The position numbers were made by a program, and so were the translations under genes. The notes under the pieces are model-generated. The model had not been told where the DNA came from. It ran no database searches and saw nothing but the letters and a program-made list of their open reading frames with translations. A stretch of DNA of 63,714 nt from Gammaproteobacteria bacterium (GTDB lineage Bacteria > Pseudomonadota > Gammaproteobacteria > Steroidobacterales > PWYM01): NCBI GenBank assembly GCA_041745895.1, contig JBGTIC010000046.1, positions 1 through 63,714 on the forward strand, given 5' to 3'. The first letter of the stretch is position 1. Each line of letters starts with the position of its first letter. This document shows positions 16,810 through 34,912 of this stretch, piece by piece.

Positions 16810-16811
16810 CC

Positions 16812-18767: not shown

Positions 18768-18778
18768 GGCTAACAATC

Positions 18779-19189: not shown

Positions 19190-19222
19190 TGCTGCACTAC
19201 TCCCACCAGGAGGGCTTGAGTC

Positions 19223-19822: not shown

Positions 19823-19864
19823 GGTCGGATGATTCGAAGCAGTTGCGAAAAGGAGGCCGGACCT

Positions 19865-21723: not shown

Positions 21724-22563
21724 TCACTGCGTCAACCACGCCGCCAACCCGGCCCATGCCATGCGCAGCCCGGTGATGAGCAGGAATCCGGCGAACGCGT
21801 AGCGAAGGGTTTTCGCGGGGAAATGATGCGCCAGGCGCACACCGTAAGGCACAGCCAGCAAGGTTGTCGGCAGCAGGCATGCCACAGCCAGCAGGTTCAC
21901 GTAGCCCAGTGACAACGCTGGCAGGCCCTGCTGGGCCCAGCCCGTGACGACGAAACCCAGGGCGCCCGGCACTGCGATCAACAGGCCAAGGGCTGCGGAG
22001 GTGCCCACGGCGCGGTGTACGGGAATCCCATAGGCCGTCATCGCAGGCACCGACAGCGAGCCGCCGCCGATGCCCATCAGTGCGGAAACAGTGCCGATGC
22101 TCACAGGAATCGTGGCACCGCGTACCCCGGTGGGCAGACGAACTCCCAGGCGAAAACCGTCGCCGAAAAGGCCCAGCCACGCAGCCATCGCAAGTACGAC
22201 GATGCCGAAGAAGACGGCGAGCGACGCGGAATCCAGGACAGTCGCCACCGCCACGCCGATCAGCACCCCGACGACAATCGCCCATCCCCACCGGCGCAGG
22301 ACCTCACCGGATACGGCGCCGCGCGCATGGTGGGCGGCGGCCGAACGAATCGAGGTGGGTATTATGAGCGCCAGGGACGTGCCGACCGCAATGTGCATCA
22401 GCTGATCCTGCGGCGCCTGCGCAATCAGCATGACCTGATAGACCGCAGGCACTACGATGATGCCTCCGCCGATACCCAGCAGGCCTGCGAGAAGGCCTGC
22501 GAAGACCCCGGCAACGAGCAGCAGCGAGACAAGCCAGAGCAACTGGGTTGCGCCAAGTTCCAT
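21724..22563 (-). CDS. TauE/SafE (DUF81) family anion exporter
   Basis: 279-aa polytopic ORF with duplicated LGIGGGIIVVP / MGIGGGSLSVP motifs. Confidence 0.8.
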   Translation of the reverse strand: MELGATQLLWLVSLLLVAGVFAGLLAGLLGIGGGIIVVPAVYQVMLIAQAPQDQLMHIAVGTSLALIIPTSIRSAAAHHARGAVSGEVLRRWGWAIVVGVLIGVAVATVLDSASLAVFFGIVVLAMAAWLGLFGDGFRLGVRLPTGVRGATIPVSIGTVSALMGIGGGSLSVPAMTAYGIPVHRAVGTSAALGLLIAVPGALGFVVTGWAQQGLPALSLGYVNLLAVACLLPTTLLAVPYGVRLAHHFPAKTLRYAFAGFLLITGLRMAWAGLAAWLTQ

Positions 22564-22653
22564 GCGCGCTCCGCAAAAGCAGCATTGTAAACCCGAGGCT
22601 TTGGCAACGCTGTACTACAATGGCGTCACATCGATCTCGGGAGCCGCCGGCCC

Positions 22654-23313
22654 ATGTCAAACCAGAGTCTTTCGCTGACGCCCGCACTGTATGACTACAT
22701 CCTGCAGGTGTCGCTGCGTGAATCTCCCGTACTTCAGGCGCTGCGGGCAGAGACTGCGCGCATGCCACAGGCCAACATGCAGATCGCGCCCGAACAGGGA
22801 CAGTTCATGCAGATGCTGGTGATGCTGTGCGGCGCACGAAGAGTCATCGAGGTGGGTGTCTTCACCGGCTACTCCAGCCTGGCGATGGCACAGGCACTGC
22901 CAGCGGACGGCGAACTTCTGGCCTGCGATGTCAGTGAGCAATTTACCGCGATTGCTCGAGAGTACTGGCAACGCGCCGGCGAGACGCGCATCGATCTGCG
23001 TATCGGCCCGGCCGGTGACACCTTGGCCGCGCTGATCGAGCACGGGCAGTCCGGCAGCTGGGACCTGGCGTTCATCGATGCCGACAAGACAGGCTATGCG
23101 GGCTATTATGAGCAGTGCCTGGAATTGTTGCGTCCGGGCGGACTCATCGCGTTGGACAACACGTTGTGGGGCGGTGCCGTGGTCGATGCGCAACGCGACG
23201 ATGAGGACACCCGTGCGATCCGCGCGCTGAATCTGCGTCTGCTCGATGATTCGCGCATCGACCTGAGTCTGGTGCCCATCGGCGACGGCCTGACACTTGC
23301 GCGCAAGCGATGA
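22654..23313 (+). CDS. class I SAM-dependent O-methyltransferase (family 3, caffeoyl-CoA OMT-like)
   Basis: 219-aa ORF with VIEVGVFTGYSSLAMA, FIDADK and GGLIALDNTLWGG. Confidence 0.85.
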   Translation: MSNQSLSLTPALYDYILQVSLRESPVLQALRAETARMPQANMQIAPEQGQFMQMLVMLCGARRVIEVGVFTGYSSLAMAQALPADGELLACDVSEQFTAIAREYWQRAGETRIDLRIGPAGDTLAALIEHGQSGSWDLAFIDADKTGYAGYYEQCLELLRPGGLIALDNTLWGGAVVDAQRDDEDTRAIRALNLRLLDDSRIDLSLVPIGDGLTLARKR

Positions 23314-23326
23314 ATCGGCTGCGGAT

Positions 23327-23650
23327 TCAGCTGCCAGGCGGTGAATCGTCTGAAGGTGTTTCGTCCTGAGCAAACACGCGGAAGATCCGCTCCAGATAGG
23401 CTTCCCGCCTGCGCATGCGCTCGGTTTCGATCTGTTCATCGACTTGGAAATGGTCGACTCGAGCGCGCGATAGCAGCTTGTCGGCATCGAGAAGTCTTTC
23501 GAGCGTATCGATACGGTCGTAGGCCACGGACAGTTCAGCCGCGAGCTCGACCACCACTGAATAGAGCTGGTCGATCGCCGGGTCATCGAAGAAATGCGGT
23601 CGGCGCCCCTTTGACTGACGTGGCAGCCTGTCCCTGTCACCGTGACTCAT
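23327..23650 (-). CDS. hypothetical protein (107 aa, charged/helical)
   Basis: The ORF starts 5 nt after the stop of the upstream gene in the caiB-like operon. I recognised no family. Confidence 0.55.
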   Translation of the reverse strand: MSHGDRDRLPRQSKGRRPHFFDDPAIDQLYSVVVELAAELSVAYDRIDTLERLLDADKLLSRARVDHFQVDEQIETERMRRREAYLERIFRVFAQDETPSDDSPPGS

Positions 23651-23655
23651 CTGCG

Positions 23656-24552
23656 CTACGCTTCGCTGGCAACCAGCTCGATCAGCTCGCCGGCGACGCC
23701 GCGCAGCGTCAACGCTGGACGATTCCGGTAGGGCGCGGTCGTGCAGGTATATTGGCCGCCGAGCGCGTCGGCCAGAAACGGCGCGAGCTGTGGCACTTCG
23801 AACGTGACCATCGACATGGCCGGGGGCAGGTAGCCGGGCTGGACCCGGCGGGCCACGGTCTGAGCAGGATATCGATCGGCCTCGATGAAGCTCTTGCCAT
23901 CGAGCGCCAACGCCGCCAGATCATGCAACTGATCTGATGGAAGGCCCAGTGCGTTGGACAGCACGGTGATTTTCACAGGCATGGCAGGGCTGTGTGGCAC
24001 TTCGAAGCGCGCCTCGAAGTACGCCTGGAGCGCCTCGAGACTTGGACCGCCAAGGATCACAATGAAGGTACGATCCACATCGCAGCGTGGCAGCGGGGTA
24101 TCAAACTCCGGGAGCTGTCGCTTGAACTGCGTCAGGTAGAGCACCTCTCGCGCTGGACCCTCGATCTGCAAGGCCCGGATCGCATCGGTGAACGAGAGAT
24201 CTTCGGGTGGACCGATCATGCGAAAGGGCGAATCGGCAAGTCGTTGCGCCATGGCGTCGACATCACGCACGATCAGCTCGGCGGCATTCCAGCCCCAGGT
24301 GGTCAGTGCGCGGTAGTCACCAGTCTCTCCTTCGACGATTCGAAACCAGAAATCGTCGCCTTGCTCGGGCGCCAGCAGGATCTGCCGACTGCCCGCCTGC
24401 GCCGGTGCGCCCCAGCCTGTGGCCACCGCCGCGGAGACCTCGAGGCTTGGGTCTGCATCGACCTGGCGATAGCCCAGCCAGCGCTGATAGGCTGCCGCCA
24501 GCACTTCCGGCTCTTCGGCAGTAATCGTGACGCAGCGAATCGGTCCGAGCAT
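23656..24552 (-). CDS. hypothetical protein, possibly two-domain VOC/glyoxalase-like fold (uncertain)
   Basis: 298-aa ORF in an operon with the isochorismatase-like and caiB-like genes. The fold assignment is only a guess from length and pattern. Confidence 0.5.
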   Translation of the reverse strand: MLGPIRCVTITAEEPEVLAAAYQRWLGYRQVDADPSLEVSAAVATGWGAPAQAGSRQILLAPEQGDDFWFRIVEGETGDYRALTTWGWNAAELIVRDVDAMAQRLADSPFRMIGPPEDLSFTDAIRALQIEGPAREVLYLTQFKRQLPEFDTPLPRCDVDRTFIVILGGPSLEALQAYFEARFEVPHSPAMPVKITVLSNALGLPSDQLHDLAALALDGKSFIEADRYPAQTVARRVQPGYLPPAMSMVTFEVPQLAPFLADALGGQYTCTTAPYRNRPALTLRGVAGELIELVASEA

Positions 24553-24599
24553 TCAGCATCTCTCCTGGTCGCAGACCCGCGGGCCAGCAATATGGCGCT

Positions 24600-25232
24600 C
24601 TAGTTCGGCAGTGAAGTCAGGTAGGCTTCAACTTCGGCCAACGACCTGACCTCAGCATACTTGGCTTGCAGATCGAACAGGTTGGCCTCGTGAGGCCCCG
24701 GATCGCGGTCGCCTACGGCATCGCGCACGACCACAGGTATGAAGCCGTATTGCATGGCATCTACGGTGGACGCACGGATACACCCCGAGGTCGACAATCC
24801 TGCAATCAGCAGCGTATCCACCCCCAGCGCGGTCAGGGTCGATGCCAGACTGGTGCCGAAAAACGCACTTGCATATTGCTTGGTGATCACCGGCTCGGAT
24901 GCCACCGGTTCCAGCCCCTGTGCGAAGGCGCCCATGGGCGAACCGCGTTCGAAGGCACGCAGTGCGGCAACCTTCTTGAAGAAAACACCGCCGTCCACGC
25001 CGCCTGGCGTGAACGACACGTTCGTGTGCAAAACCGGGATGCCGGCGCTGCGCGCGGCACCCAGCAGGCGCACGCAATGCGCCAGGGCCTCTTCGACGCC
25101 CGCGTAGAGCGGCGAGTCGCGATCCAGGTAGGCGCGCACGAAATCGATGATCACCAGCGCCGGCGTGGTACCGAGCGCCAGCGCGCCACCGAAGCCGGCG
25201 GCCTGATAGTCGGCTTGCAGGTCCTTCGCCAT
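24600..25232 (-). CDS. isochorismatase-family (cysteine) hydrolase, N-carbamoylsarcosine-amidase-like
   Basis: 210-aa ORF with ALVIIDFVRAY (catalytic Asp), ITKQYASAFFGT (Lys) and IAGLSTSGCIRASTVDA (nucleophile Cys). Confidence 0.8.
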   Translation of the reverse strand: MAKDLQADYQAAGFGGALALGTTPALVIIDFVRAYLDRDSPLYAGVEEALAHCVRLLGAARSAGIPVLHTNVSFTPGGVDGGVFFKKVAALRAFERGSPMGAFAQGLEPVASEPVITKQYASAFFGTSLASTLTALGVDTLLIAGLSTSGCIRASTVDAMQYGFIPVVVRDAVGDRDPGPHEANLFDLQAKYAEVRSLAEVEAYLTSLPN

Positions 25233-25267
25233 AGTTTGTCCTCTTGTTCGGGCAGCGTGCCGGGCGA

Positions 25268-26482
25268 CTAGATGACGCCCTGTGCGTGAAGTTCGGCCAT
25301 GCGCTCGTCATCCAGCCCGAGCAGACCTTTGTACACCTCCTCATTATGCTGGCCCAGCTCGGGACCTGCTGAGCGTACTGCACCGGGTGTCAGGGACAGC
25401 TTGGGCGCGACGTTCTGCATCTTGATCTTGCCAAGCTCCGGATGCATGACCTCGACGATGGCCTTGCGCGCCTCGAAGTGGGGGTCCAGCAGCATCTCCG
25501 GTGCGCGGTAGATCCCACCCGATGGGATGCCGTGCTGGTCCATGAGGGCTACCAGCTCGTCCTGAGTCACTGTACGGGTCCACTCCGAGATCAGGTCGTC
25601 GAGTTCCTGCTGGTGACGGCCACGCGCGGTGTGGGTGCTGTAGCGCGGATCTTCAGCAAGTTCCGGGCGCTGCATCGCTGCCGTCAGCCGCTTGAACACC
25701 GTGTCCTGATTGGCGGCAATCAGCTGCAGCTTCTCGTCTTTCGTCGGGTAGACGTTGGACGGGGCGACATTGGGCAGAATCGAGCCCTGCCGCTCGCGGA
25801 TGTATCCCACAACATCGTATTCCGTGATCAGCGATTCCATCATGTTGAGCACGGCCTCATAGATGGCCGAATCGACCATCTGTCCCTTGCCGGTACGTTC
25901 GCGGTAGTGCAGTGCCGACAGCGCGCCCACGCAGGCAAACGTCGCCGCCAGAGAATCACCGATACTGATGCCCATGCGGCTGGGCGGCGTGCGCGGATCA
26001 CCGCAGACATAGCGCAGCCCGCCCATCGACTCGCCGACCGCACCGAAGCCTGCGCGCTTGGCGTAGGGGCCGGTCTGACCGAAGCCGGAAACCCGGATCA
26101 TGATCAGCCGCGGGTTGATCTTCGCGAGTTCCTCATAACCAAGTTGCCATTTTTCCATCGTGCCGGGACGGAAATTCTCCAGCAGGAAATCGGCATCCCT
26201 GACGAGTTCCCGAACGAGCGCCTGGCCGGCCGCTTCGCGCAGATTCAGGGTGACCGACTTCTTGTTGCGGGCGATCACGGGCCACCACAATGACTTGCCG
26301 TGCGCCTTTTCCTGTCCCCACTCGCGCATCGGATCGCCCTTGCCCGGCGGCTCGACCTTGATGACCTCGGCGCCGAAATCTCCGAGCAGTTGTCCGCAGA
26401 ATGGACCTGCAAGCAGGGTCCCCATTTCGATGACGCGCAGGCCCGAGAGGGGGCCGCCGGTGTTGTCCGCGTTACTTCCCAT
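25268..26482 (-). CDS. family III CoA-transferase (CaiB/BaiF family)
   Basis: ORF 25268..26590 trimmed to MGSNADNTGGPLSGLRVIEMGTLLAGPFCGQLLGDFGAEVIKVEPP..., followed by ENFRPGTMEKW. Confidence 0.88.
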   Translation of the reverse strand: MGSNADNTGGPLSGLRVIEMGTLLAGPFCGQLLGDFGAEVIKVEPPGKGDPMREWGQEKAHGKSLWWPVIARNKKSVTLNLREAAGQALVRELVRDADFLLENFRPGTMEKWQLGYEELAKINPRLIMIRVSGFGQTGPYAKRAGFGAVGESMGGLRYVCGDPRTPPSRMGISIGDSLAATFACVGALSALHYRERTGKGQMVDSAIYEAVLNMMESLITEYDVVGYIRERQGSILPNVAPSNVYPTKDEKLQLIAANQDTVFKRLTAAMQRPELAEDPRYSTHTARGRHQQELDDLISEWTRTVTQDELVALMDQHGIPSGGIYRAPEMLLDPHFEARKAIVEVMHPELGKIKMQNVAPKLSLTPGAVRSAGPELGQHNEEVYKGLLGLDDERMAELHAQGVI

Positions 26483-26571
26483 GCACTTGTACCTGTAGTT
26501 TTCTGGATTCGAGGGAGAGCAGGCGCCCTTTTGGATCAGCTTATCCCGACGGATCTGAGGCGGGATCGACG

Positions 26572-26584
26572 TAGTGTATACAAT
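26572..26584. promoter_or_regulatory. TAGTGTATACAAT, TGTATACA palindrome site A
   Basis: Read directly from the sequence, about 95 bp upstream of the caiB-like start codon. Confidence 0.5.
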
Positions 26585-26634
26585 CGGCATGTCAAACTGG
26601 TCAAGGCTGGACCGGCTTGGGCGGATTCGCCGTG

Positions 26635-26648
26635 AGTTGTATACAATT
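26635..26648. promoter_or_regulatory. AGTTGTATACAATT, TGTATACA palindrome site B (best copy)
   Basis: Read directly from the sequence. AATTGTATACAACT/AGTTGTATACAATT is a near-perfect 14-bp palindrome about 75 bp upstream of the HMG-CoA-lyase-like start. Confidence 0.5.
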
Positions 26649-26659
26649 GCCGGACGAAT

Positions 26660-26671
26660 CCAGTATACAAT
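26660..26671. promoter_or_regulatory. CCAGTATACAAT, TGTATACA-like palindrome site C
   Basis: Read directly from the sequence. Its dyad is 24 bp from site B and about 50 bp upstream of the HMG-CoA-lyase-like start. Confidence 0.45.
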
Positions 26672-26719
26672 CGGGGACTTGAGACGCGACGCTCAGTCGC
26701 GCAGAAATGGTGGGGTTTG

Positions 26720-27634
26720 ATGCAGAACATCGAGATCGTCGAGGTTGGTCCGCGCGACGGCCTGCAGGGTGAACCCGAGGTGCTCGGCACCGCAATGAAG
26801 GTCGAGTTCATCAATCGCGCCGTTGCGGCCGGCATTCGCCGCTTGGAAGTCGCGAGTTTCGTGCATCCCAAGAAAGTGCCGCAGATGGCTGATGCGGAAG
26901 CCGTCCTGGCCGGTCTGCCGCGATGCGATGACGTGATCTACGTCGGCCTGGTGCTCAATCGCCGTGGCTTCGATCGCGCGCTGGCCGCCGGGGTGGACGA
27001 AATCGGCATGCCGGTCGTCGCCACCGATACCTACAATCTTCGCAACCAGGGTGTGCCCACGGAGCAGTCGATCAATGACTGGCTGGAGATCGCCGAGGCG
27101 GCCCACGAGGCCGGAATCCGTTGCAGCGTGACGATCTCTTCTGCGTTTGGCTGTCCTTTCGAGGGAGAGGTCGCCCTGGCTCGGGTGCTGGACATCGCCC
27201 GCCGGGTCGCTGCAGGCCGGCCGGTAGAGATCGCGCTGGCCGACAGCATCGGGGTGGGCGTGCCCTCGCAGGTCGCCGAGATGATCGCGGCCGTCCGGCA
27301 GCTGCTCCCGGACATGCCACTGCGCTGCCATTTCCACAACACGCGCAACACTGGACTTGCGAATGCCTACGCAGCAGTGCAGGCCGGGGTCTCTTCGCTG
27401 GATGCAAGTATCGGGGGTATCGGCGGATGTCCGTTCGCCCCGGCGGCCACCGGCAACATTCCGACCGACGATCTGGTTTACATGCTCAACCGATCAGGTA
27501 TAAACACGGGTGTGGATCTGGCTCGAATCATCGAGACCAGCGAGTGGCTGGCCGCCGCCCTTGGGCGCAATGTGCCGGCCATGCTCCCGAAGGCAGGCAG
27601 CTTTCCCGAGATCGCCTCCGGCAAAGCAGCCTGA
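26720..27634 (+). CDS. hydroxymethylglutaryl-CoA lyase family (HMGL-like) enzyme
   Basis: ORF 26717..27634 (TTG) trimmed to ATG 26720. Motifs: IVEVGPRDGLQ, CHFHNTRNTGLANAYAAV and GGIGGCPFAP. Confidence 0.88.
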   Translation: MQNIEIVEVGPRDGLQGEPEVLGTAMKVEFINRAVAAGIRRLEVASFVHPKKVPQMADAEAVLAGLPRCDDVIYVGLVLNRRGFDRALAAGVDEIGMPVVATDTYNLRNQGVPTEQSINDWLEIAEAAHEAGIRCSVTISSAFGCPFEGEVALARVLDIARRVAAGRPVEIALADSIGVGVPSQVAEMIAAVRQLLPDMPLRCHFHNTRNTGLANAYAAVQAGVSSLDASIGGIGGCPFAPAATGNIPTDDLVYMLNRSGINTGVDLARIIETSEWLAAALGRNVPAMLPKAGSFPEIASGKAA

Positions 27635-27752
27635 CGCATGAGCAATGATCGTTGCGTGGTGCGTCAGGCGACGTCCCACAATGCGCTGACCAGAAAACCA
27701 ATTCAGGCAGGCCTTGCGGTCTGCGGCAACAACCAGCCAATCAGGTGAACAG

Positions 27753-29948
27753 ATGAGCTATCGCTTGGGAGTAGACGTAGGGGGAACATTCACGGACCTT
27801 CTATTGGTGAACGAAAAATCCGGGGACATCTTCACGGCCAAAGTGCCGAGCACACCACAGGACTCGTCGATCGGCGTCCTGAACGGGATCGAAAGGGTCT
27901 GCAACAACGCCGGCATCGATCCCGCAGAAATCACCCACGTGATGCACGGCACCACGGTGGCAACGAACACGATGCTCGAAGGCAATGGTGCCACCGTCGG
28001 CCTGGTGACAACGAAGGGCTATCGCCAGGTTCTGCAGATCGCGCGCTCGTATGTGCCGGGCGGATTGGGCGGCTGGGTGATTTACAACAAGAGCAACCCT
28101 ATTGCCCCGCTGGCGCTGACGATCGAAGCCGAAGAGCGCATGAGTGCCAAGGGCGAAGTCGTGCGCAAGCTCGATGAGGCGCAGATCGAGGCTGAGCTGA
28201 TCCGGCTGCGCGACAAGGGCATCGAGGCACTCACAGTTTCCCTGATCAACTCCTACGCCAACCCGGCGAACGAAAAGAAGATCAAGCGCATCGCCACGCG
28301 GGTGATGCCGGGCATTCCAGTGTCGCTGTCATCCGAGGTGGTGCCGGAGATGCAGGAGTACGAGCGAACCGTCACGACGGTGGCAAACTCCTTCGTGCGC
28401 CCGAAGGTCCAGACCTATATTCGCAACCTTCATCGTGAACTCACCAGCAAGATGAAGAACGTGCAGCTGCATGTGCTGCGCTCGGATGGCGGACTCGCGG
28501 CGGCGAAAGCTGCCGAAGAAATGCCTGTCAACCTGCTGATGAGCGGCCCGGCCGGCGGCGTTGCCGGGGCCATCTGGGTGGCCAGGCAGGCAGGGTTCCC
28601 GAACCTGCTGACCTTCGACATGGGGGGCACCTCCACGGACGTGTGCCTGGTCCAGAACGGCAAGGCGCAACTGCGTCGCGAGACGACCGTGGGAGATGTC
28701 ACGGTGCGCGCCTCGTCGGTGGACGTGCGCACGGTCGGTGCGGGTGGCGGCTCGATCGCCAAGGTGCCGGAACTCACCAAAGCGCTGCGCGTGGGACCCG
28801 AGAGCGCCGGTGCGGCACCCGGACCGGCAGCCTACGGCCAGGGCGGTGAGGCCCCGACGGTGACGGACGCGAACGTCACGCTGGGGTATCTGCCAGCCGA
28901 GGTTCGCCTTGGCGGCGATATGACCATTCGCAAGGACCTGGCTGAAAAAGCGGTGCAGAGCATCGCCGATTCGCTGGATCTTACGCTGCACGAGGCGGCA
29001 TCGGGCATCGTCGATATCGTCAACGAAAACATGTTCGGTGCCCTGCGACTGGTGTCGGTTGAACAGGGCTATGATCCACGCGACTTCGCATTGATCGCCT
29101 TCGGCGGGGCAGGTCCGCTGCACGCCAACGCGCTCGGACGCCTGATGGGCTCGTGGCCGGTGATCATCCCGCCTGGCCCAGGAGTACTGTGCGCTTATGG
29201 CGATGCCACCACGCGTGTTCGCGACGAGGCTTCGCGCACGTTCATTCGCAAATTCACCGATACCAATGTCGACGAGGTGGTCAAGACTTTCGAGGATCTC
29301 GCCGACACCGCCGCAAAGACGCTGGATAACGAAGGCGTTGCGCGCAAGGATCAGTCGGTCAGCTACCAGGTGGATGTGCGCTACCACGGCCAGGGTCTGC
29401 AACTGACGGTCGATGTTGATCTCAAGGATCTGCGCAAGAACGGTCTTGCGGCCATTGGCGGGCCATTCGACGAGATGCATCGCCAGCTGTTCACCTTTGC
29501 ACTGGAACTCGACAAGGAAGTGGTCAACCTGCGTGCCGTCGTCCAGGGCAAGCCCACCAAGGTCAAGGCACCGGAGGTCAAGCGTGGCGGTCCGGATCCG
29601 AAGGCTGCGGTCGTCGCCGAGCACAGGATCTACGCCGACGGCAAGATGCGCAAGGCGAAGATCTACGATCGCGCCAAGCTCAAGGCCGGTAACAAGGTGG
29701 CCGGCCCGGCGGTGGTCATGGAGATGGACTCCACCACGGTGATCCTGCCTGGTCACACGGGTGTTGTGGATCGTTTCGGCAACATCCTGATCAATCCGGA
29801 CAAGGGTGCCAGCAACACCAGGACCCGGCAGAGCGCAGCGAGCAAGCCGGTCAAGAGCCTCAGCAAGGCGAGCGCCAAAACCGCTGCGGGGAAAGGGAAG
29901 AAAAAGGCGACGAAGAAGAAGGCAGCGAAGAAGCGGGCCGCGGCCTGA
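27753..29948 (+). CDS. hydantoinase A / oxoprolinase family ATP-dependent enzyme, A-type subunit, with Lys/Ala-rich C-terminal tail
   Basis: ORF 27714..29948 trimmed to MSYRLGVDVGGTFTDLLLV... (ASKHA-type ATPase motif); TFDMGGTSTDV is also present. The last ~47 aa are KPVKSLSKASAKTAAGKGKKKATKKKAAKKRAAA-like. Confidence 0.85.
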   Translation: MSYRLGVDVGGTFTDLLLVNEKSGDIFTAKVPSTPQDSSIGVLNGIERVCNNAGIDPAEITHVMHGTTVATNTMLEGNGATVGLVTTKGYRQVLQIARSYVPGGLGGWVIYNKSNPIAPLALTIEAEERMSAKGEVVRKLDEAQIEAELIRLRDKGIEALTVSLINSYANPANEKKIKRIATRVMPGIPVSLSSEVVPEMQEYERTVTTVANSFVRPKVQTYIRNLHRELTSKMKNVQLHVLRSDGGLAAAKAAEEMPVNLLMSGPAGGVAGAIWVARQAGFPNLLTFDMGGTSTDVCLVQNGKAQLRRETTVGDVTVRASSVDVRTVGAGGGSIAKVPELTKALRVGPESAGAAPGPAAYGQGGEAPTVTDANVTLGYLPAEVRLGGDMTIRKDLAEKAVQSIADSLDLTLHEAASGIVDIVNENMFGALRLVSVEQGYDPRDFALIAFGGAGPLHANALGRLMGSWPVIIPPGPGVLCAYGDATTRVRDEASRTFIRKFTDTNVDEVVKTFEDLADTAAKTLDNEGVARKDQSVSYQVDVRYHGQGLQLTVDVDLKDLRKNGLAAIGGPFDEMHRQLFTFALELDKEVVNLRAVVQGKPTKVKAPEVKRGGPDPKAAVVAEHRIYADGKMRKAKIYDRAKLKAGNKVAGPAVVMEMDSTTVILPGHTGVVDRFGNILINPDKGASNTRTRQSAASKPVKSLSKASAKTAAGKGKKKATKKKAAKKRAAA

Positions 29949-30016
29949 CGCGCCAGTGACGGTCGCGTCCGTGAATGGCGCGAGACACCTTTTCGAATTT
30001 TGCAGAGAGTACCGAC

Positions 30017-31924
30017 ATGCCAGCAACCATCATTGAAACAAACAAGAAGGCCTTCAAGCGCAAGAAGGTCGACCCGATCACCCTCGACATTGTCGAGAAC
30101 GCAATGCTCAATGCGCGTTATGAAATGGATGCTGTGCTTTTTCGCACGGCAATGTCACCGGGCATTCGCGAACAGCATGACGAATTCCCGATGATCGCAA
30201 ACCGCGACGGCAAGATGGTCGTCGGCCAGTTCGGCTCTTTTATCCACGGCTTTTTGAAGGGGTTCAACGACACCATCGAGGAAGGCGACATTTTCCTCAC
30301 CTCGGACCCGTATCTGACCAACGGCGCGATCAGCCACGCCAATGACTGGTTGCTGCTCAAGCCGATCTTCAAGGAGGGTCGCATCATTGCGTGGGCCGCG
30401 ATGTTCGGACACATGACCGATATCGGCGGCAAGGTCCCGGGCAGCCTGCCAACCGATGCACGACAGATCTTCGAGGAGGGCGTGGTGATTCCGCCGCTGA
30501 AGATCTACCGCAAGGGCGAATTGCAGGAAGACGTACTCAAGCTGATTCTGCACAACTGCCGCCTGCCACACTGGAACTTGAGCGACTTCAACGCTATCGT
30601 GGCGGCGATCCGTACGGCCGAGAAACGTTGTATCGAGCTCGCAAGACGCTTCGGTGACGATGTCTACTATTCGGCGCTGGAAGAGCTGCTCGATCGCAAC
30701 TATCGCGCGATGCGCAAGCTCATTCAGACCACCGTTCCGGAGACCAAGCAGTACTTCGAAGATTACATCTGCGATGACGGGATGGGCATGGGCCCTTACA
30801 AGATCCGCTGTGCGATGTGGCGCGAAGGCGAGAAAGTCATCTTCGATTTTACCGGCACCGATCCGCAATCCGTGGGTCCCGTGAACTTCTTCCTCAACGA
30901 GGAGATGTTCAAGATGTTCTGTGGCGTCTACATGATCATGGTCTTCGACCCTCAGATCATGTTCAACGACGGCTTCTACGACCTGATGGAAGTGCATATT
31001 CCTGAGGGCACATTGCTCAAGCCCAAGAAGCCCGCAGCACTGTCGTGTCGGACTCATGCGCTGGGCCGTATCTTCGATGTACTCGGTGGCCTGCTCGGCC
31101 AGGGCAGCCCGGATTTCCTTTGCGCAGCCGGTTTCTCCGACAGCCCCCACTTCATGTATTCGGGTTACGACAAGCGTGGCCAGTGGTATCAGCTCTACCA
31201 GATCGGTTTTGGTGGCATACCAGGCAAGCCCTCAGGCGATGGCCCGGATGGTCATTCCCTGTGGCCGAGCTTCACCAACGTGCCCAACGAGTTTCTCGAA
31301 AGCTACTTCCCGCTGCGTATCGAGGCCTATGAGACCATTCCTGACAGTGGTGGGCCCGGTCTGCACAGAGGCGGCAACGCGCTGCGGGTGGGCTACTGCT
31401 TTCTCGAGCCCGGTGAAATCTCGATCCACGATGACCGCTGGCTGACCTACCCATGGGGCGTCACCGGCGGCCTGCCCGGTCAGCGAAGCACGAAGCTGTT
31501 GGTGCGCACGGACGGCTCTCAGGAACTCATGCCCTCCAAATGCGATCGAGTCGTCGTGAACAGCGGGGACATCCTTTACTTCGATACCTGGGGTGGCGGC
31601 GGCTGGGGTGACCCGCTGAAGCGTCCGGTCGAGCGCGTGGAATTCGACGTCGAGGCAGGGCTTGTGACCCACGATGGTGCACGGCGCTACGGTGTGGTGC
31701 TCGACACTGACGGCAAGACTGATGAGGCGGCGACCAAAGAGCTGCGTGCCAAGATGGCCAAGGAGCGTGGCAAGACCAAGCTGTTCGACTACGGTGGCAC
31801 GATCGAGGAGCTCAAGGCGCGCTGCAAGGCCGAGACAGGGCTTGAGCCGCCTGCCAAGCCGGAGTTCCCGCGCTGGCTGAAGGCAGCCGGCCAGGCCGCG
31901 CCAAAAATGAAGCTGGCAAGCTAG
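30017..31924 (+). CDS. hydantoinase B / oxoprolinase family protein, B-type subunit
   Basis: ORF 29975..31924 trimmed to MPATIIETNKKAFKRKKVDPITLDIVENAM.... Other blocks: DIFLTSDPYLTNGAISHANDW and GGGGWGDPLKRP. Confidence 0.85.
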   Translation: MPATIIETNKKAFKRKKVDPITLDIVENAMLNARYEMDAVLFRTAMSPGIREQHDEFPMIANRDGKMVVGQFGSFIHGFLKGFNDTIEEGDIFLTSDPYLTNGAISHANDWLLLKPIFKEGRIIAWAAMFGHMTDIGGKVPGSLPTDARQIFEEGVVIPPLKIYRKGELQEDVLKLILHNCRLPHWNLSDFNAIVAAIRTAEKRCIELARRFGDDVYYSALEELLDRNYRAMRKLIQTTVPETKQYFEDYICDDGMGMGPYKIRCAMWREGEKVIFDFTGTDPQSVGPVNFFLNEEMFKMFCGVYMIMVFDPQIMFNDGFYDLMEVHIPEGTLLKPKKPAALSCRTHALGRIFDVLGGLLGQGSPDFLCAAGFSDSPHFMYSGYDKRGQWYQLYQIGFGGIPGKPSGDGPDGHSLWPSFTNVPNEFLESYFPLRIEAYETIPDSGGPGLHRGGNALRVGYCFLEPGEISIHDDRWLTYPWGVTGGLPGQRSTKLLVRTDGSQELMPSKCDRVVVNSGDILYFDTWGGGGWGDPLKRPVERVEFDVEAGLVTHDGARRYGVVLDTDGKTDEAATKELRAKMAKERGKTKLFDYGGTIEELKARCKAETGLEPPAKPEFPRWLKAAGQAAPKMKLAS

Positions 31925-31942
31925 GACACTACAAGGTCAAGT

Positions 31943-31980
31943 CCCGGGCAGGAAGGGCGCATGCGCGCTTTTTGCCCGGG
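31943..31980. terminator. long GC hairpin between convergent genes (possible bidirectional terminator)
   Basis: CCCGGGCA ... GCGCATGCGC ... TGCCCGGG with an internal CTTTTT. It lies between the hydantoinase B stop and the X1 stop. Confidence 0.4.
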
Positions 31981-31996
31981 GCATGAGCCTCGGTCT

Positions 31997-32659
31997 TCAG
32001 CCCAGGGGTTTGACCGTGCCGAGAAAGGCAGCAAGCAAAAGCGCGACGTACAAGGCAACCACGACTCGGATGGTTGCGTCGATGCCTGAGGAAATACGGG
32101 CCTCGAGCTGTTCACTGCTGCCGCGTGCGGCAAGCTCGGCGAAGCCTGCGCCTACGGGCTTGAACGCATAATCGATGCCCAGCGCGAGCAGGCAGATGAC
32201 TGCATACAGCGCGAGCTTGGCACTCAGCCATGGCGCTGACGTGAGTGCATCCGTCCACACGCCAAGCGCACTGGCAGTGAACAGCATTGTTGCCAACATA
32301 AGCAGCCATGCGGATAGCAGGCGGTGCAGCAGCGGTGACGCCGCAGGATTGCGTGCCAGCCCGATCACAAGCGCCAGCCAGAAGCCTGCGACGGCCCAGG
32401 TGATGGCGGGCAGCAGGGCGGAGGGATGTAGCAGGCCCATGTTCCACGCCAGCTGCACACCGACGGGCAACATCAGTACGAACGCGATGCGCGGAGTGAA
32501 GTCGATCTTCATTGCCATTTCCAGCAGCAGGCTGCGCTGCGAGAAGGCAAGGGAGGGATCTTTTGCACGCCGCGCCAGCACGAAAACCCCGAGGTCGGCG
32601 CCCAGCCAATAGACGAACAGCAGGATATGGACGAAAACCCAGAATTCGTGAATCTGCAT
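31997..32659 (-). CDS. 6-TM membrane protein of unrecognised family, paralogue X1
   Basis: ORF 31997..32698 trimmed to MQIHEFWVFVHILLFVYWLGADLGVF... (GGGAGG SD 9 nt upstream). It shares motifs with 43669..44340 and 56728..57399. Confidence 0.7.
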   Translation of the reverse strand: MQIHEFWVFVHILLFVYWLGADLGVFVLARRAKDPSLAFSQRSLLLEMAMKIDFTPRIAFVLMLPVGVQLAWNMGLLHPSALLPAITWAVAGFWLALVIGLARNPAASPLLHRLLSAWLLMLATMLFTASALGVWTDALTSAPWLSAKLALYAVICLLALGIDYAFKPVGAGFAELAARGSSEQLEARISSGIDATIRVVVALYVALLLAAFLGTVKPLG

Positions 32660-32688
32660 GGTGCGCGCCTCCCTGACGGTGTAGGCGC

Positions 32689-33387
32689 ATGGTTTCATAC
32701 TGCCCTGCGAGCGCTCAAGTGAAGGCCGTAGAAAAGGCCTACAACGCCGTTCGGCGCGGCATCCTGGGTGGTCGGTTTGCGGCCGGTAGCCGGCTGACCG
32801 AGCATGAGGTCTCGGCGCTCGCTGGGGTCAGTCGCACGCCGGTACGCGAGGCCCTCAGACGTCTGCAAAGTGAAGGCCTGCTCGAGTTCATTCCCAATCA
32901 CGGAGCGGTGGTCGCCAACTGGAATGAAGCCGAGGTCGACGACATCTTCGAGCTTCGCGCGATGCTGGAAGCCTACGCAGTCGAGCGCGCTACGCGGCAC
33001 GCCAGCGAGGCAGACCTGCGCGAACTCCACGAGCTGGCTGAAGCCCAACTGCGCGCAGCCCATGCGCGCGGGGAGAAGAAGCTCGAAGACATTGCTGAGC
33101 TGAACAGCCGATTCCACGAGCGCCTGCAGAAAGCAGCCAACAGTGAGCGTCTGCAACGCATGCTGGTGGCCTTGATCGAGGTGCCGCTGGTTGCGCAGAC
33201 CTTCCGAAAATACACTGACGAACAACTGCTGCGCAGTTCACAGCATCACCTGGAAATCGTGCTGGCAATGGAAGCCGGGGACGCCGATGGAGCGGCCTCG
33301 ATCATGCGTGCGCACGTGCTGGCCGCTCGAACAGCCTTCTACCGCGCTACCGGCCGCGAGAGCCCGACGCGCGCGGCCGCATCCTGA
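32689..33387 (+). CDS. GntR family transcriptional regulator, FadR/FCD subfamily
   Basis: 232-aa ORF. The winged HTH is LTEHEVSALAGVSRTPVREALRRLQSEGLL, followed by an all-helical FCD-type C-terminal domain. The start could also be GTG 32719. Confidence 0.85.
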   Translation: MVSYCPASAQVKAVEKAYNAVRRGILGGRFAAGSRLTEHEVSALAGVSRTPVREALRRLQSEGLLEFIPNHGAVVANWNEAEVDDIFELRAMLEAYAVERATRHASEADLRELHELAEAQLRAAHARGEKKLEDIAELNSRFHERLQKAANSERLQRMLVALIEVPLVAQTFRKYTDEQLLRSSQHHLEIVLAMEAGDADGAASIMRAHVLAARTAFYRATGRESPTRAAAS

Positions 33388-33396
33388 ATCGAGAGT

Positions 33397-34206
33397 TCAG
33401 CGCGCCGCAACAGGCTGTGTGTTGTGATACTCGGCCCGCTGGCGTGCAAATTCGCCGCCGATCTGATCGGCAGCACGTCGCATTCTCGGCACAAAGCGCT
33501 CGACTGCCGCCGGCTGCGGCAGCGCCGTACTGGAAAAGCGCACTGTCAACGCAGCCATGAGTCTGCCTTCGGACGTGATGGGGACTGAGAAGGCGGTCAG
33601 ATCGGATACACGACGCGGTCTGGTGTGGATCGCAAAACCACGCTCGCGGGTTTCCAGCAACAGTTTCTGTACCTGAACACGGTTGCGCGCGAGCTGGTCG
33701 GCGACGTTCTTCGAGCGTGCCAGCATGTCGATGAGCGCCTCGCGCTGGGTCTTGTCACAGAACGCGAGGTAGACCAGGCCAGAGGCGCTGGCCAGCATCG
33801 GTACCCGATAACCCGGGCCGTAGCGCTCAACTGCCAGCGGGCTCTGGTGGTCCGTGGTCTCGCGCACCAGCATGCTGGTACCCGAAAGCGTGGCAATGGA
33901 CACCGGCCACACAATCTCGCGGCACAGCTCATAGATGAAGGGTTTGGCTGTCTGGGTGATCCACGCTTCGTCATCGAACCCGTCCGACAGGCCGCGCACC
34001 ATGATGGTCAACCGATACTTGTCGTCACTCTCGGAGCGATACGCGTAGCCAGCGTGACACAGGGTTTCGAGAATGCGATAGGTGGTCGTGCGCGGCAGGT
34101 CGATCTCGTGAGCAACCTCGGAGACGGTCACGCCGTCTTTCAGATTGAGAATCGTCAGGGCATCCAGACCCCTGATGAGGGCGCGGATAGGTCGGGTAGA
34201 AGTCAT
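33397..34206 (-). CDS. IclR family transcriptional regulator
   Basis: ORF 33397..34533 trimmed to MTSTRPIRALIRGLDALTILN...VTVSEVAHEIDLPRTTTYRILETL, followed by an IclR effector domain. Confidence 0.85.
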   Translation of the reverse strand: MTSTRPIRALIRGLDALTILNLKDGVTVSEVAHEIDLPRTTTYRILETLCHAGYAYRSESDDKYRLTIMVRGLSDGFDDEAWITQTAKPFIYELCREIVWPVSIATLSGTSMLVRETTDHQSPLAVERYGPGYRVPMLASASGLVYLAFCDKTQREALIDMLARSKNVADQLARNRVQVQKLLLETRERGFAIHTRPRRVSDLTAFSVPITSEGRLMAALTVRFSSTALPQPAAVERFVPRMRRAADQIGGEFARQRAEYHNTQPVAAR

Positions 34207-34320
34207 GGTAGACGTATTCCTGTCAATGTCTGGAACCGGACTCTTGGAAGAGAGCACATCACAGGCGAGCGAAAATGTCCACAGGGTGAACAGTGACGCG
34301 GGCCCGTGCAGCCCCTGATG

Positions 34321-34335
34321 GATCGTTGTACGATC
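34321..34335. promoter_or_regulatory. inverted repeat GATCGT-tgt-ACGATC, candidate IclR operator
   Basis: Read directly from the sequence, in the divergent region between the IclR and flavin reductase genes. Confidence 0.3.
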
Positions 34336-34411
34336 TGGGCGCCAAATTGGATGTAACGGTGAGCAGGGAGTAGGGACCATTTCTGTTGCAGATGCCACAC
34401 AGCCGCTGCCG

Positions 34412-34912
34412 GTGCCTGTCGCGCCGGATGTCGAGGCGAGGCGTGCGTTGCGTGCAGGCCTGGGCGAATTCGCCACGGGCGTTACGATAGTGACGACCTT
34501 CGAAGCCGACAAGCCGGTCGGCATCACTGTCAACTCATTCGCTTCCGTTTCGCTGGATCCACCCTTGATCCTGTGGAGCGTCGCGCGCGAGGCGAGCTGT
34601 GCGCCTGCGTTTGCTCCCGGCCGGCGCTTTTGCGTGCATGTGCTGGCTGCCGGTCAGGAGACGCTGGCGCGGCGCTTTGCGCGCACCGGTGGCGACAAGT
34701 TTGCCGACCTGGACTGGTCTCCAAGCACCCATGGCACGCCGCTGCTGCCCGGGTGTATCGCGGAGTTTCACTGCAGTGTCAGCGCCTGTCACGCGGGCGG
34801 GGACCACACGATCATCGTCGGCCGGGTCGACGCCTGGCTTTCCAGAAAGGGTCAGGCACTGGTGTTTCACCGCGGCCGGTTTCTTGCTCTGCCGCGTACC
34901 AGCGAAACCTAA
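34412..34912 (+). CDS. NAD(P)H-dependent flavin reductase (HpaC/RutF-like)
   Basis: 166-aa ORF (GTG start) with FATGVTIVTT...VGITVNSFASVSLDPPLILWSV. Confidence 0.85.
   Translation: MPVAPDVEARRALRAGLGEFATGVTIVTTFEADKPVGITVNSFASVSLDPPLILWSVAREASCAPAFAPGRRFCVHVLAAGQETLARRFARTGGDKFADLDWSPSTHGTPLLPGCIAEFHCSVSACHAGGDHTIIVGRVDAWLSRKGQALVFHRGRFLALPRTSET

Follow-up and report, generated by a model that had tools for sequence, protein, structure and literature searches.

Enzymes of the HyuA/HyuB type are very numerous in genomes. Substrates are known for only a handful of them, namely N-methylhydantoin, 5-oxoproline, caprolactam, other lactams, acetone and acetophenone. The question raised by the locus described here is which compound is handled by such a pair when it is encoded together with an amidase, a coenzyme A (CoA) transferase and a carbon-carbon lyase. 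The locus lies at positions 23327–31924 of a 63,714-nt stretch of DNA, hereafter the window (contig JBGTIC010000046.1, assembly GCA_041745895.1, Gammaproteobacteria bacterium; Steroidobacterales, PWYM01). The seven open reading frames (ORFs) that an initial annotation had placed there in two divergent operons were all present (Table 1), and the unit is extended here to position 33387. The cluster is a genuine catabolic module, probably undescribed, whose parts come from known enzyme families. By analogy with characterised systems, and with a probability that we put at roughly 55%, it would be a GntR-controlled module that opens a ring amide at the expense of ATP, deamidates the product, activates the resulting acid with CoA and cleaves it to acetyl-CoA and a 2-oxo acid. 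What the data show directly is the gene content, the catalytic residues, how far the gene set and operator are conserved, and where HyuB stands phylogenetically.

Conservation of the gene set

The neighbourhood of the cluster was examined in a scan, limited to a single genome for each species, that used an alignment of the 298-aa protein of the minus operon, referred to below as the VOC protein after the fold of its model. The scan gave 205 stretches confirmed by tblastn, from which 80 loci were kept. All 80 came from Gammaproteobacteria or from less precisely named metagenome-assembled genomes (MAGs) of Pseudomonadota, and they included Woeseiaceae, Steroidobacteraceae, Nevskiaceae, Lentisalinibacter, Acidibacter and one record labelled Klebsiella. 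When only loci with enough flanking DNA were counted, the VOC gene was accompanied by the HMGL-type lyase gene in 63 of 63 loci, HyuA in 51 of 52, HyuB in 45 of 45, the CoA-transferase in 65 of 69, the amidase in 61 of 75 and the gene for a 107-aa protein in 30 of 60. Across related loci the identity of the VOC protein fell as low as 42%; the arrangement HyuB-HyuA-HMGL divergent from CoA-transferase-(amidase)-VOC persisted and the outer flanks varied. The retention of the core neighbours in most eligible gammaproteobacterial loci supports the functional linkage for which the initial annotation had proposed a neighbourhood comparison.

A wider search, by tblastn of HyuB against plasmids and by gene-context look-ups, recovered a five-family core in shuffled order from Gamma- and Alphaproteobacteria, Bacillota, Acidobacteriota, Actinomycetota and haloarchaea, the last two in variant or partial form. 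This core consists of HyuA, HyuB, a cysteine amidase resembling NicF and N-carbamoylsarcosine amidase, a family III CoA-transferase and a lyase of the 3-hydroxy-3-methylglutaryl-CoA (HMG-CoA) lyase type. In Acidiphilium multivorum the order was GntR-HMGL divergent from CoA-transferase-HyuA-HyuB-amidase, with an MFS transporter and a porin upstream, and in Novosphingobium capsulatum a TonB receptor was followed by GntR-HMGL-HyuA-HyuB-CoA-transferase-amidase, the amidase carrying the PGAP name 'N-carbamoylsarcosine amidohydrolase'. A plasmid of Geobacillus sp. Y412MC52 carried amidase-HyuA-HyuB-CoA-transferase-HMGL with leuC/leuD beside the cluster, these last being 60–63% identical to a LeuC/LeuD-like pair of Evansella sp. 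LMS18 that lies, together with a crotonase gene, directly 3' of HyuB in a cluster containing all five core families. The five families also occurred together in Alicyclobacillus sp. ALC3, in one Acidobacteriota MAG and in two Rhodospirillaceae MAGs (L098 and L099), and Rubrobacter indicoceani had a cluster with no adjacent lyase.

On five haloarchaeal plasmids a HyuA-HyuB-amidase run had one of two kinds of continuation. In Natronomonas, Natronorubrum and Halorientalis the CoA-transferase and HMGL were replaced by a methylisocitrate-lyase-like protein of the ICL/PEP-mutase family, which scored 230 bits against prpB and was under the cut-off. In Haladaptatus and Haloterrigena there was a CoA-transferase together with a 363-aa LeuA-family protein, named 'citramalate synthase' by PGAP in Haloterrigena. 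The joint occurrence of the same five families in distant phyla and archaea, with the gene order shuffled, also supports functional linkage, and the five-gene core is an ancient or widely transferred functional unit. Of the seven-gene cluster proposed initially, this core stood, together with its regulator, as conserved across phyla; the VOC and 107-aa genes, which accompanied the cluster in some lineages only, are accessories of those lineages and not part of the core.

A shared predicted operator and regulator

A triple palindrome had been noted between the two operons, and TGTATACAAT-type sites were indeed located there at 26573–26584, 26636–26647 and 26662–26671. The predicted operator, TTGTATACAA, is present in three copies between the operons of the window. 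When up to one mismatch was allowed, the whole window contained 11 TGTATACAAT-type sites against 0.41 expected in shuffled sequence, an excess of about 27-fold. Among the scan loci, two to three copies of ATTGTATACA were found in the spacer between the HMGL and CoA-transferase genes in all 11 loci with an adjacent GntR homologue, and the motif was lacking in most loci without one; five GntR-less loci (L043, L053, L062, L064 and L069) still had one or two copies. An IclR homologue was the regulator gene nearest HyuB in the GntR-less loci L002, L042, L062, L069, L071, L076 and L084.

A GntR/FCD regulator usually goes with the core; outside the Gammaproteobacteria, a GntR-family gene was part of the clusters of Acidiphilium, Novosphingobium, Rubrobacter, Evansella, Alicyclobacillus and Acidobacteriota. 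The TTGTATACAA core lay in the cluster promoter regions of Acidiphilium (TTTGGTATACAAAT), Novosphingobium (TATTGTATACAAAT), Evansella (ATTGTATACAAT, two copies) and Alicyclobacillus (ATTGTATACAAA, two copies), where the overall density of GTATAC was only 0.1–0.3 per kb. The regulator of the window contains helix-turn-helix and FCD domains which, with the palindromic GT...AC sites of predicted binding in the target promoters, place the system among GntR/FadR-type (FCD) regulons. Since the regulator-operator pair travels with the genes from Proteobacteria to Bacillota, there is strong evidence at the sequence level that the two divergent operons form one regulon. A lack of co-regulation would have spoken against the initial annotation; instead a single predicted GntR operator is common to both operons and is kept across phyla.

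Further TGTATACAAT/TTGTATACAA palindromes were seen outside the cluster at 11638–11649, upstream of a 180-aa ORF and leuA, at 15568–15577, before TonB-system genes, at 41230–41239, inside an aldehyde dehydrogenase gene, and at 61211–61222, at the start of an aminotransferase gene. The same regulator, or a relative of it, may act at these sites too, and the genes near them (leucine biosynthesis, acyl-CoA dehydrogenase, aldehyde dehydrogenase, aminotransferase) showed no clear link with the pathway.

The core enzymes

The assignments of the five enzymes to their families were confirmed by Pfam and NCBIfam profile matches. HyuA contained the three domains of the Hydantoinase_A family and the ATP motifs DVGGTFTD, DMGGT and GAAPGP, and is a member of the HyuA group; the corresponding patterns DxGGTxxD, DxGGT and GxxPGP were defined for caprolactamase (PMC8453981). 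Compared with entries of the PDB, HyuA gave 447 bits with N-methylhydantoinase (7hk5), 381 with CapA, 315 with ApcC, the gamma subunit of acetophenone carboxylase, and 233 with acetone carboxylase beta. The scores of HyuB were 238 bits with N-methylhydantoinase, 219 with caprolactamase, 127 with acetophenone carboxylase delta and 53 with acetone carboxylase alpha. Alignment to CapB revealed that the Asp-His-Asp-His metal tetrad of HyuB (D54, H107, D110 and H131) is kept, in line with its membership of the HyuB group.

The NCBIfam equivalog cut-offs for caprolactamase were missed (CapA 544 against 1000 bits, CapB 221 against 1000), and the scores for ApcC and ApcD were far under theirs. HyuB was 33% identical to the beta part of N-methylhydantoinase and 32% identical to CapB, and in a neighbour-joining tree the cluster-linked HyuB proteins formed one clade apart from both. 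Tight clustering with characterised 5-oxoprolinases, combined with an unconserved neighbourhood, had been named as grounds for abandoning the proposal; the pair clustered tightly with no characterised enzyme, and acetone carboxylase was distant. Many HyuB homologues of 720–790 aa with a C-terminal extension, about 63% identical to the Geobacillus protein, were also noted, and one such locus (L102) was inspected.

The amidase belongs to the NicF and N-carbamoylsarcosine amidohydrolase (CSHase) clade of isochorismatase-fold cysteine amidases. Its best PDB matches were the N-carbamoylsarcosine amidohydrolase 26st (1.6e-45) and the maleamate amidohydrolases 3ot4 and 4l07, and the E-values to solved enzymes of the clade ranged from 1.6e-45 to 3.3e-29. 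Residues D30, K118 and C151 (numbering approximate) aligned with the conserved D/K/C of 26st, 3uao, 4l07 and 1nba, and the GDR motif was present. Across all fetched loci the cluster-linked amidases were 41–52% identical to 26st, 41–45% to Bordetella NicF and 34–45% to Arthrobacter CSHase. The amidase is approximately equidistant from NicF and N-carbamoylsarcosine amidase and matched no NCBIfam equivalog. Both N-carbamoylsarcosine amidase and maleamate amidase act on substrates of the form H2N-CO-X-Y-COO-.

Residues 12–380 of the CoA-transferase cover the whole 366-position CoA_transf_3 profile, which identifies a family III enzyme. It fell below every NCBIfam equivalog cut-off, the models being those for succinate-hydroxymethylglutarate, succinate-glutarate, formyl-CoA and mesaconate CoA-transferases; the best was succinate-glutarate CoA-transferase with 276 against 750 bits, and others were missed with 261 against 504 and 249 against 700 bits. 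Matches in the PDB were 4ed9, 10uh and SUGCT (9br7, 6.9e-65), and D176 aligned with a conserved Asp of SUGCT, YfdE, 4ed9 and 10uh that we take to be the catalytic residue of family III CoA-transferases. The lyase scored 309 bits with the NCBIfam model PRK05692 (cut-off 246) and falls within the HMG-CoA lyase subfamily, with the HMG-CoA lyases 6nds and 2cw6 as best PDB matches. Comparison with human HMGCL (2cw6) revealed that the PRDGLQ motif containing the Arg-Asp pair, the Glu, the HxH motif, the loop Cys and the Asn are all kept, and the overall identity to characterised lyases was about 40%. Judged by these residues, the core enzymes look active.

Proposed pathway

To our knowledge the single pairing of HyuAB with an isochorismatase-fold amidase is that of N-methylhydantoinase with N-carbamoylsarcosine amidase. 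On this analogy HyuAB would open a ring amide and the amidase would remove the terminal amide, and because the solved enzymes nearest to the amidase use H2N-CO-X-Y-COO- substrates, the amide is expected to stand four atoms away from a carboxylate. From the chemistry of the related enzymes we infer the order of the steps, the type of ring, the hydration step, the substrate and the roles of repressor and transporter as follows. HyuA/HyuB with ATP would open a stable ring amide, likeliest a cyclic imide or ureide with five ring members (maleimide, succinimide or hydantoin type), to give a terminal carboxamide and a carboxylate in the H2N-CO-X-Y-COO- arrangement. The N-methylhydantoinase of Pseudomonas putida 77 hydrolyses succinimide and glutarimide. 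The cysteine amidase would then free the amide nitrogen as ammonia and leave a dicarboxylate with a C4 backbone, probably maleate/citraconate-like or (alkyl)malate-like. A dicarboxylate is favoured over an amino acid because the CoA-transferase and a Claisen-type lyase are conserved partners, and a dicarboxylate product in turn favours a cyclic imide, or a ring yielding a half-amide, over a hydantoin. If the acid were unsaturated it would be hydrated by a LeuCD-like hydratase or crotonase, as encoded in Evansella, or elsewhere by housekeeping LeuCD or a MaoC hydratase. The family III CoA-transferase would make the CoA thioester, and cleavage of the HMG-CoA lyase type would give acetyl-CoA (or propionyl-CoA) and a 2-oxo acid, for instance pyruvate. 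The GntR/FCD protein would bind the three TTGTATACAA sites between the operons and be released on binding of a pathway carboxylate, and the membrane protein encoded beside it may import the substrate.

The most coherent chain would run from a maleimide-type ring through a maleamate-type half-amide, an alkylmaleate, an alkylmalate and an alkylmalyl-CoA to cleavage. By analogy, the LeuCD-like, crotonase, methylisocitrate-lyase-like and LeuA-like variants of the cluster point to intermediates of the maleamate, alkylmaleate and alkylmalate type. A MaoC/mesaconyl-CoA-hydratase-like gene elsewhere in the window is a further hint at such a carbon skeleton. LeuCD interconverts citraconate and citramalate; in Eubacterium barkeri the LeuCD-like DmdAB hydrates dimethylmaleate and the ICL-family enzyme Dml cleaves 2,3-dimethylmalate; and Chloroflexus uses a family III succinyl-CoA:(R)-citramalate CoA-transferase with an (R)-citramalyl-CoA lyase of the HMGL family. 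The 3-hydroxy-3-alkyl dicarboxylate of the initial annotation is a plausible intermediate in general, but the lineage variants point more to maleamate, alkylmaleate and 2-alkylmalate (citramalate-type) compounds than to HMG. That some lineages use LeuA-like or ICL-like lyases also argues for an acyl group other than HMG in the lyase reaction. The specific version of the pathway, in which maleimide or citraconimide would be converted to citramalyl-CoA, is proposed tentatively and is, taken by itself, somewhat doubtful.

Several observations weigh against the ring-amide pathway. No hydratase is encoded in the cluster of the window or in the clusters of most lineages, and if an intermediate is unsaturated, its hydration would depend on a gene located outside the cluster. 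Within 23327–33387 no hydratase gene was found, which leaves the itaconate/citramalate-degradation gene set (transferase, hydratase, citramalyl-CoA lyase) incomplete there; a MaoC/mesaconyl-CoA-hydratase-like gene is located at 51322–51960, about 19 kb from the cluster. Simple cyclic imides hydrolyse without ATP, and an ATP-dependent enzyme is not obviously needed for them. Among gammaproteobacterial loci, 14 of 75 lacked the amidase and 4 of 69 the CoA-transferase. HyuAB pairs nested within the cluster-linked HyuB clade also occur in other contexts: on plasmid pJE1 with FAD oxidases and a succinate-semialdehyde dehydrogenase, and in L102 (8.7-Mb genome, 6011–11178) with an OMP-decarboxylase-like gene between HyuA and HyuB and with no core partner present. 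Because of these same-clade pairs, the substrate range of the clade may vary. The notion that an ICL-like lyase cleanly substitutes for CoA-transferase and HMGL is weakened by L098 and L099, in which both coexist, and the order of the reactions was deduced from chemistry and analogy.

The module could even serve to mineralise monopyrrolic breakdown products of chlorophylls, bacteriochlorophylls, haems and bilins, a role that would be widespread and unrecognised but is rather unlikely on present evidence. Candidate substrates would be methylmaleimide, methyl-ethyl- and methyl-vinyl-maleimide, hematinic acid and possibly BOX-type pyrrolinone acetamides. At the cost of ATP, HyuAB would open dialkylmaleimide or pyrrolinone rings, whose closed form is favoured, the NicF-like amidase would free ammonia, and the alkylmaleate, once hydrated, would be split into acetyl- or propionyl-CoA and pyruvate, either through a CoA ester or by the direct action of an ICL-type lyase. 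The habitats of the cluster carriers (sediment, lake, soil, hot spring and hypersaline) fit this role, and so do the maleimides and hematinic acid reported from leaves and from lake sediments (PMC7318184).

Alternative explanations

Read literally, the initial annotation implies a six-membered glutarimide-type or other precursor of 3-hydroxy-3-methylglutarate, an SUGCT-like transferase and a true HMG-CoA lyase yielding acetoacetate and acetyl-CoA. In favour of this route, and against cleavage of a malyl-type thioester, the lyase passes the HMG-CoA lyase cut-off (309 over 246 bits) with every HMGCL catalytic residue kept and the CoA-transferase resembles SUGCT (9br7, 6.9e-65), with succinate-glutarate CoA-transferase as its best NCBIfam model. 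However, the lyase scored near the subfamily threshold and the CoA-transferase far under every equivalog cut-off, the nearest relatives of the amidase take four-atom amide-carboxylates and not glutaramates, and the methylisocitrate-lyase-, LeuA- and LeuCD-like partners found elsewhere fit 2-hydroxysuccinate and not 3-hydroxyglutarate chemistry. We know of no natural 3-hydroxy-3-methylglutarimide, and the HMG route is considered unlikely. It is less probable still that two unrelated modules lie side by side, a HyuAB of the hydantoin or N-methylhydantoin (creatinine) type with an N-carbamoyl-amino-acid amidase yielding an amino acid, and a separate CoA-transferase/lyase pair for an organic acid. 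Such a division would suit the best solved relatives, which are exactly N-methylhydantoinase 7hk5 and N-carbamoylsarcosine amidohydrolase 26st, the PGAP name of the Novosphingobium amidase and three haloarchaeal clusters with HyuAB and amidase that lack the CoA-transferase, but the juxtaposition is kept across at least six phylum-level lineages despite the reshuffling of gene order, and one conserved predicted operator and regulator are common to both operons. In addition, the inspected neighbourhoods showed no gene for a creatinine deaminase or a sarcosine oxidase, and HyuB is only 33% identical to N-methylhydantoinase.

A further possibility was that HyuAB is an ATP-dependent ketone carboxylase of the acetone/acetophenone type, acting on a ketone released by the lyase or making a beta-keto acid for CoA activation. 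The family does include carboxylases, HyuA reached 315 bits with acetophenone carboxylase gamma, and lyases of the HMGL type can release ketones. Against this, HyuB scored 53 bits with acetone carboxylase alpha and 127 with acetophenone carboxylase delta compared to 238 and 219 with the hydrolases, no gamma or extra subunits were found, and ketone carboxylation offers no function for an amidase, which of all partners goes with HyuAB most constantly from phylum to phylum. The absence of an acetone carboxylase gamma subunit had been noted at the outset, and the scan of the cluster ORFs found no gamma-like gene; with the similarity scores this led to the rejection of the acetone carboxylase reading, and the ketone carboxylation that the initial annotation had retained as an option is highly improbable. 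The module may instead be the lower part of a longer pathway for N-heteroaromatic or pyrrole-derived compounds, or be biosynthetic, with VOC proteins, a flavin monooxygenase, methyltransferases and small helical proteins performing upstream chemistry. A same-strand run in Rhodospirillaceae, in which a FAD_binding_3 monooxygenase, a VOC protein, methyltransferases, an alpha/beta hydrolase, a thioesterase and an ICL-like gene accompany the CoA-transferase and amidase, favours this, as do the 45 fetched loci with a homologue of the L098 methyltransferase and the nine with a second VOC homologue, the two-domain VOC near the Acidobacteriota cluster and a second gene set that the window has in common with the HyuAB neighbourhood of pJE1. 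It is nonetheless a fairly unlikely explanation: the core stands without accessories in Acidiphilium, Novosphingobium, Alicyclobacillus, Geobacillus and haloarchaea and must therefore act on a compound available without them, and SAM (S-adenosylmethionine) methyltransferases have no obvious place in catabolism.

Comparison with known systems

The probable logic of the ring-amide module is that of the creatinine/N-methylhydantoin pathway, in which a HyuAB pair opens a five-membered ring amide with ATP and an isochorismatase-fold cysteine amidase then hydrolyses the terminal carbamoyl or amide group; that pathway also supplies the best solved relatives of both proteins. It ends in sarcosine and involves no CoA-transferase or C-C lyase, whereas both are conserved partners here and are under the same predicted operator. 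HyuB is also only about 33% identical and the amidase 41–52% identical to the enzymes of that pathway, and the equivalog cut-offs of the related caprolactamase were missed. The NicF step of aerobic nicotinate/picolinate degradation resembles the proposed second step in that the amidase is 41–45% identical to Bordetella NicF, with the same D/K/C positions aligned, and the product here would be a cis-butenedioate-type dicarboxylate. In the nic pathway, however, dioxygenolytic cleavage of 2,5-dihydroxypyridine yields maleamate, and the route goes on to fumarate with the help of maleate isomerase; nothing homologous to NicX, NicD or NicE was seen in the present case, in which an ATP-dependent ring hydrolase would supply the amide instead.

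The combination of a family III CoA-transferase with an HMGL-family lyase is also found in the citramalate pair of Chloroflexus aurantiacus and in SUGCT with HMG-CoA lyase. These systems split 2- or 3-hydroxy dicarboxylates into acetyl-CoA and an oxo acid, which for the present cluster is the analogy drawn by the initial annotation. Unlike them, the cluster has no equivalog-level match to a characterised transferase, and it is joined with a ring-opening and deamidating module and a GntR regulon. The end of nicotinate fermentation in E. barkeri (DmdAB and the 2,3-dimethylmalate lyase of the ICL/PEP-mutase family) is echoed by the LeuCD-like genes with the Evansella cluster and beside the Geobacillus cluster, and by the methylisocitrate-lyase-like genes with the cluster in haloarchaea and Rhodospirillaceae; these represent the same two families that handle an alkylmaleate in that organism. 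In contrast, its hydratase and lyase families are not found in the cluster of the window, and neither HyuAB nor an amidase or CoA-transferase takes part in its route at this point.

CapAB and the lactam hydrolases OplBA and NmpAB have the same two-subunit architecture, ATP motifs and metal tetrad, but the identity of HyuB to CapB is 32%, and the next enzymes of lactam pathways are aminotransferases or oxidases together with semialdehyde dehydrogenases (pJE1 is an example), not an amidase, CoA-transferase and lyase. Conversion of a cyclic imide to a half-amide and a dicarboxylate, as proposed here, occurs in the ATP-independent cyclic imide metabolism of Blastobacter (imidase and half-amidase) and of Aspergillus nidulans (HxnM/HxnN). 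The imidases of those organisms are metal-dependent amidohydrolases that work without ATP, the amidases come from other families, and no CoA-dependent cleavage is linked to them.

Novelty and implications

Full-text literature searches on combinations of these enzyme families returned either no paper or unrelated papers only, and nothing describing the cluster, which agrees with the earlier view that no described pathway combines these activities. The parts all belong to known families; what appears to be undescribed is their combination, the regulator-operator pair, the breadth of distribution and the distinct HyuAB clade. That clade is defined here, and its partners, regulator and operator are kept from Gammaproteobacteria to Bacillota, with the enzyme set reaching haloarchaea. 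The breadth of the conserved regulon implies a common natural substrate with a degradation route absent from the literature searched. Once found, the substrate would give a function to thousands of proteins whose annotations as "hydantoinase/oxoprolinase", "isochorismatase family", "CoA transferase" and "HMG-CoA lyase" are probably misleading, could show how stable ring amides, possibly tetrapyrrole-derived maleimides, are recycled into carbon and nitrogen pools, and would add further ATP-dependent ring-opening biocatalysts. The question is directly testable in cultured carriers, among them Novosphingobium capsulatum, Acidiphilium multivorum, Lentisalinibacter, Evansella, Geobacillus and Natronomonas pharaonis.

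Layout of the locus and neighbouring genes

The coordinates of the features are given in Table 1. Beyond the seven ORFs first described, the unit takes in the GntR/FCD regulator and the membrane protein gene beside it.

Table 1. Features of the divergent cluster, its promoter region and adjacent regulators, in window coordinates.
Feature	Position	Strand	Remarks
small107, 107-aa conserved helical protein	23327..23650	-	last gene of minus operon; no Pfam/NCBIfam match
298-aa divergent two-domain VOC-fold protein	23656..24552	-	AlphaFold2 model and Foldseek; no Pfam match
Isochorismatase-family cysteine amidase, NicF / N-carbamoylsarcosine amidase clade	24600..25232	-	Pfam Isochorismatase 1.2e-36
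Family III CoA-transferase	25268..26482	-	first gene of minus operon; CoA_transf_3 4.4e-128, full length
Divergent promoter region, 237 bp, three GntR-type predicted operators	26483..26719	.	sequence read
HMG-CoA-lyase-type (DRE-TIM) acyl-CoA lyase	26720..27634	+	Pfam HMGL-like; NCBIfam PRK05692
HyuA-type ATP-binding subunit of ATP-dependent amidohydrolase	27753..29948	+	Hydant_A_N, Hydantoinase_A, Hydant_A_C
HyuB-type metal-dependent hydrolytic subunit	30017..31924	+	Hydantoinase_B 1.4e-145
Polytopic membrane protein, candidate transporter	31997..32698	-	no Pfam match; hydrophobic stretches
GntR/FCD regulator, probable repressor of both operons	32689..33387	+	Pfam GntR and FCD
IclR-family regulator, possible second or alternative regulator, membership uncertain	33397..34533	-	Pfam HTH_IclR and IclR_C

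The 233-aa protein encoded beside the GntR gene consists mostly of long hydrophobic stretches, and an enzymatic role was ruled out as it is a polytopic membrane protein. Its listed start overlaps the start of the GntR gene, and the true start is probably M14 (32659). A homologue adjoins GntR in about 12 related loci. A paralogue, which like this protein has no Pfam family, is encoded at 56728–57399 on the minus strand, where it adjoins a SAM methyltransferase gene; the N-terminal motif H-I-(L/V)-L-F-x-Y-W-L-G-A-D is common to both. A scan of 22500–33500 for promoters and terminators gave nothing beyond the shuffled expectation.

Beyond the GntR gene, the IclR gene is followed by a gene of the carboxymuconolactone decarboxylase (CMD) family at 34909–35502 on the minus strand, and the Lentisalinibacter cluster is flanked by CMD and TRAP DctP genes. 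On the other side, positions 16033–21184 contain a TonB-ExbB-ExbD system, a DUF3450-like gene and a TPR protein gene, followed by a 2Fe-2S ferredoxin gene. This set lies beside the cluster in most related Gammaproteobacteria and looks like lineage synteny and not part of the pathway. The flanking O-methyltransferase, TauE, ferredoxin, TPR and TonB-ExbBD genes were rejected as pathway genes on the same grounds, being syntenic in related Gammaproteobacteria and not seen next to the cluster in the other phyla inspected.

The VOC protein, the 107-aa protein and lineage accessories

The initial annotation had left the 298-aa and 107-aa ORFs without a family, and neither matched Pfam or NCBIfam; both are genuine genes, each with homologues. 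The 298-aa protein had 244 homologues, some of them named 'VOC family' or 'catechol 2,3-dioxygenase-like' in the source databases. An AlphaFold2 model (predicted local distance difference test score, pLDDT, 95.4) had a two-domain VOC fold, and Foldseek matched it to the two-domain glyoxalase I structures 5d7z and 6bnx, to GLOD4 and to PcpA (4huz) with a probability of 1.0, a template modelling (TM) score of about 0.6 and 13–15% identity. As judged from the model, the protein belongs to the VOC (glyoxalase / extradiol dioxygenase) superfamily. The alignment of 24 family members contained no invariant His, which makes a classical metal-dependent dioxygenase or glyoxalase function doubtful; E92, E224, E289, E292, R71, R126 and R161 were invariant. 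Genes for VOC folds recur near the cluster in three lineages: in Gammaproteobacteria as the 298-aa type and a second type of 368 aa, in Rhodospirillaceae as a 176–180-aa protein beside the flavin monooxygenase, and in Acidobacteriota as a 316-aa two-domain protein nearby.

The 107-aa protein had 95 homologues with an invariant core of F21, D23, E39, R46, D48 and E51-R52-L53-L54. It was modelled by AlphaFold2 as a helical hairpin (pLDDT 76), for which Foldseek found no PDB match. Its identification as a known small subunit was rejected, as there was no Pfam match even at E <= 1 and no PDB match, and relatives of it are also encoded in places without HyuAB nearby, Novosphingobium ES2-1 being one case. 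Paralogues of small107 mostly come directly after a SAM methyltransferase of about 380 aa. The recurrent pair consists of a class I SAM methyltransferase of about 380–410 aa with a long N-terminal extension followed by small107, often in several copies per locus (L086, 10885–15096; L087, 10944–12439; L098, 9001–11003; L099, 4790–12412; L089, 1095–2683). The 45 fetched loci with the L098 methyltransferase homologue and the nine with the second VOC, of the L086 type, were mostly from Steroidobacteraceae and related Gammaproteobacteria.

In the Rhodospirillaceae MAGs the operons extend beyond the CoA-transferase and amidase genes (L098, 7227–13668; L099, 4790–15709) and contain genes for the FAD_binding_3 monooxygenase, the small VOC protein, methyltransferases, the alpha/beta hydrolase, a 4HBT thioesterase and the ICL/PEP-mutase protein, with MmgE/PrpD in addition in L099. 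This organisation suggests an upstream branch for a more complex substrate. More generally, the VOC, small107 and methyltransferase genes may make up an upstream branch that handles a more complex precursor, or may have an unrelated function.

A second gene set, at 49020–58623 of the window, has several members in common with the HyuAB neighbourhood on plasmid pJE1 of Sphingomonas sp. JE1, on which a literature search gave nothing relevant, and may be functionally tied to the HyuAB cluster. The common genes encode a FAD_binding_4 oxidase (49020–50642, 44% identity), a HapK/REDY-like protein (51111–51407, 48%), an SDR (52770–53600, 54%) and a SAM methyltransferase (57427–58623, 33%). The same set includes the MaoC/mesaconyl-CoA-hydratase-like gene mentioned above, an orphan TRAP DctP gene (53613–54656) and a gene for an OYE-like flavoprotein (54672–56681).

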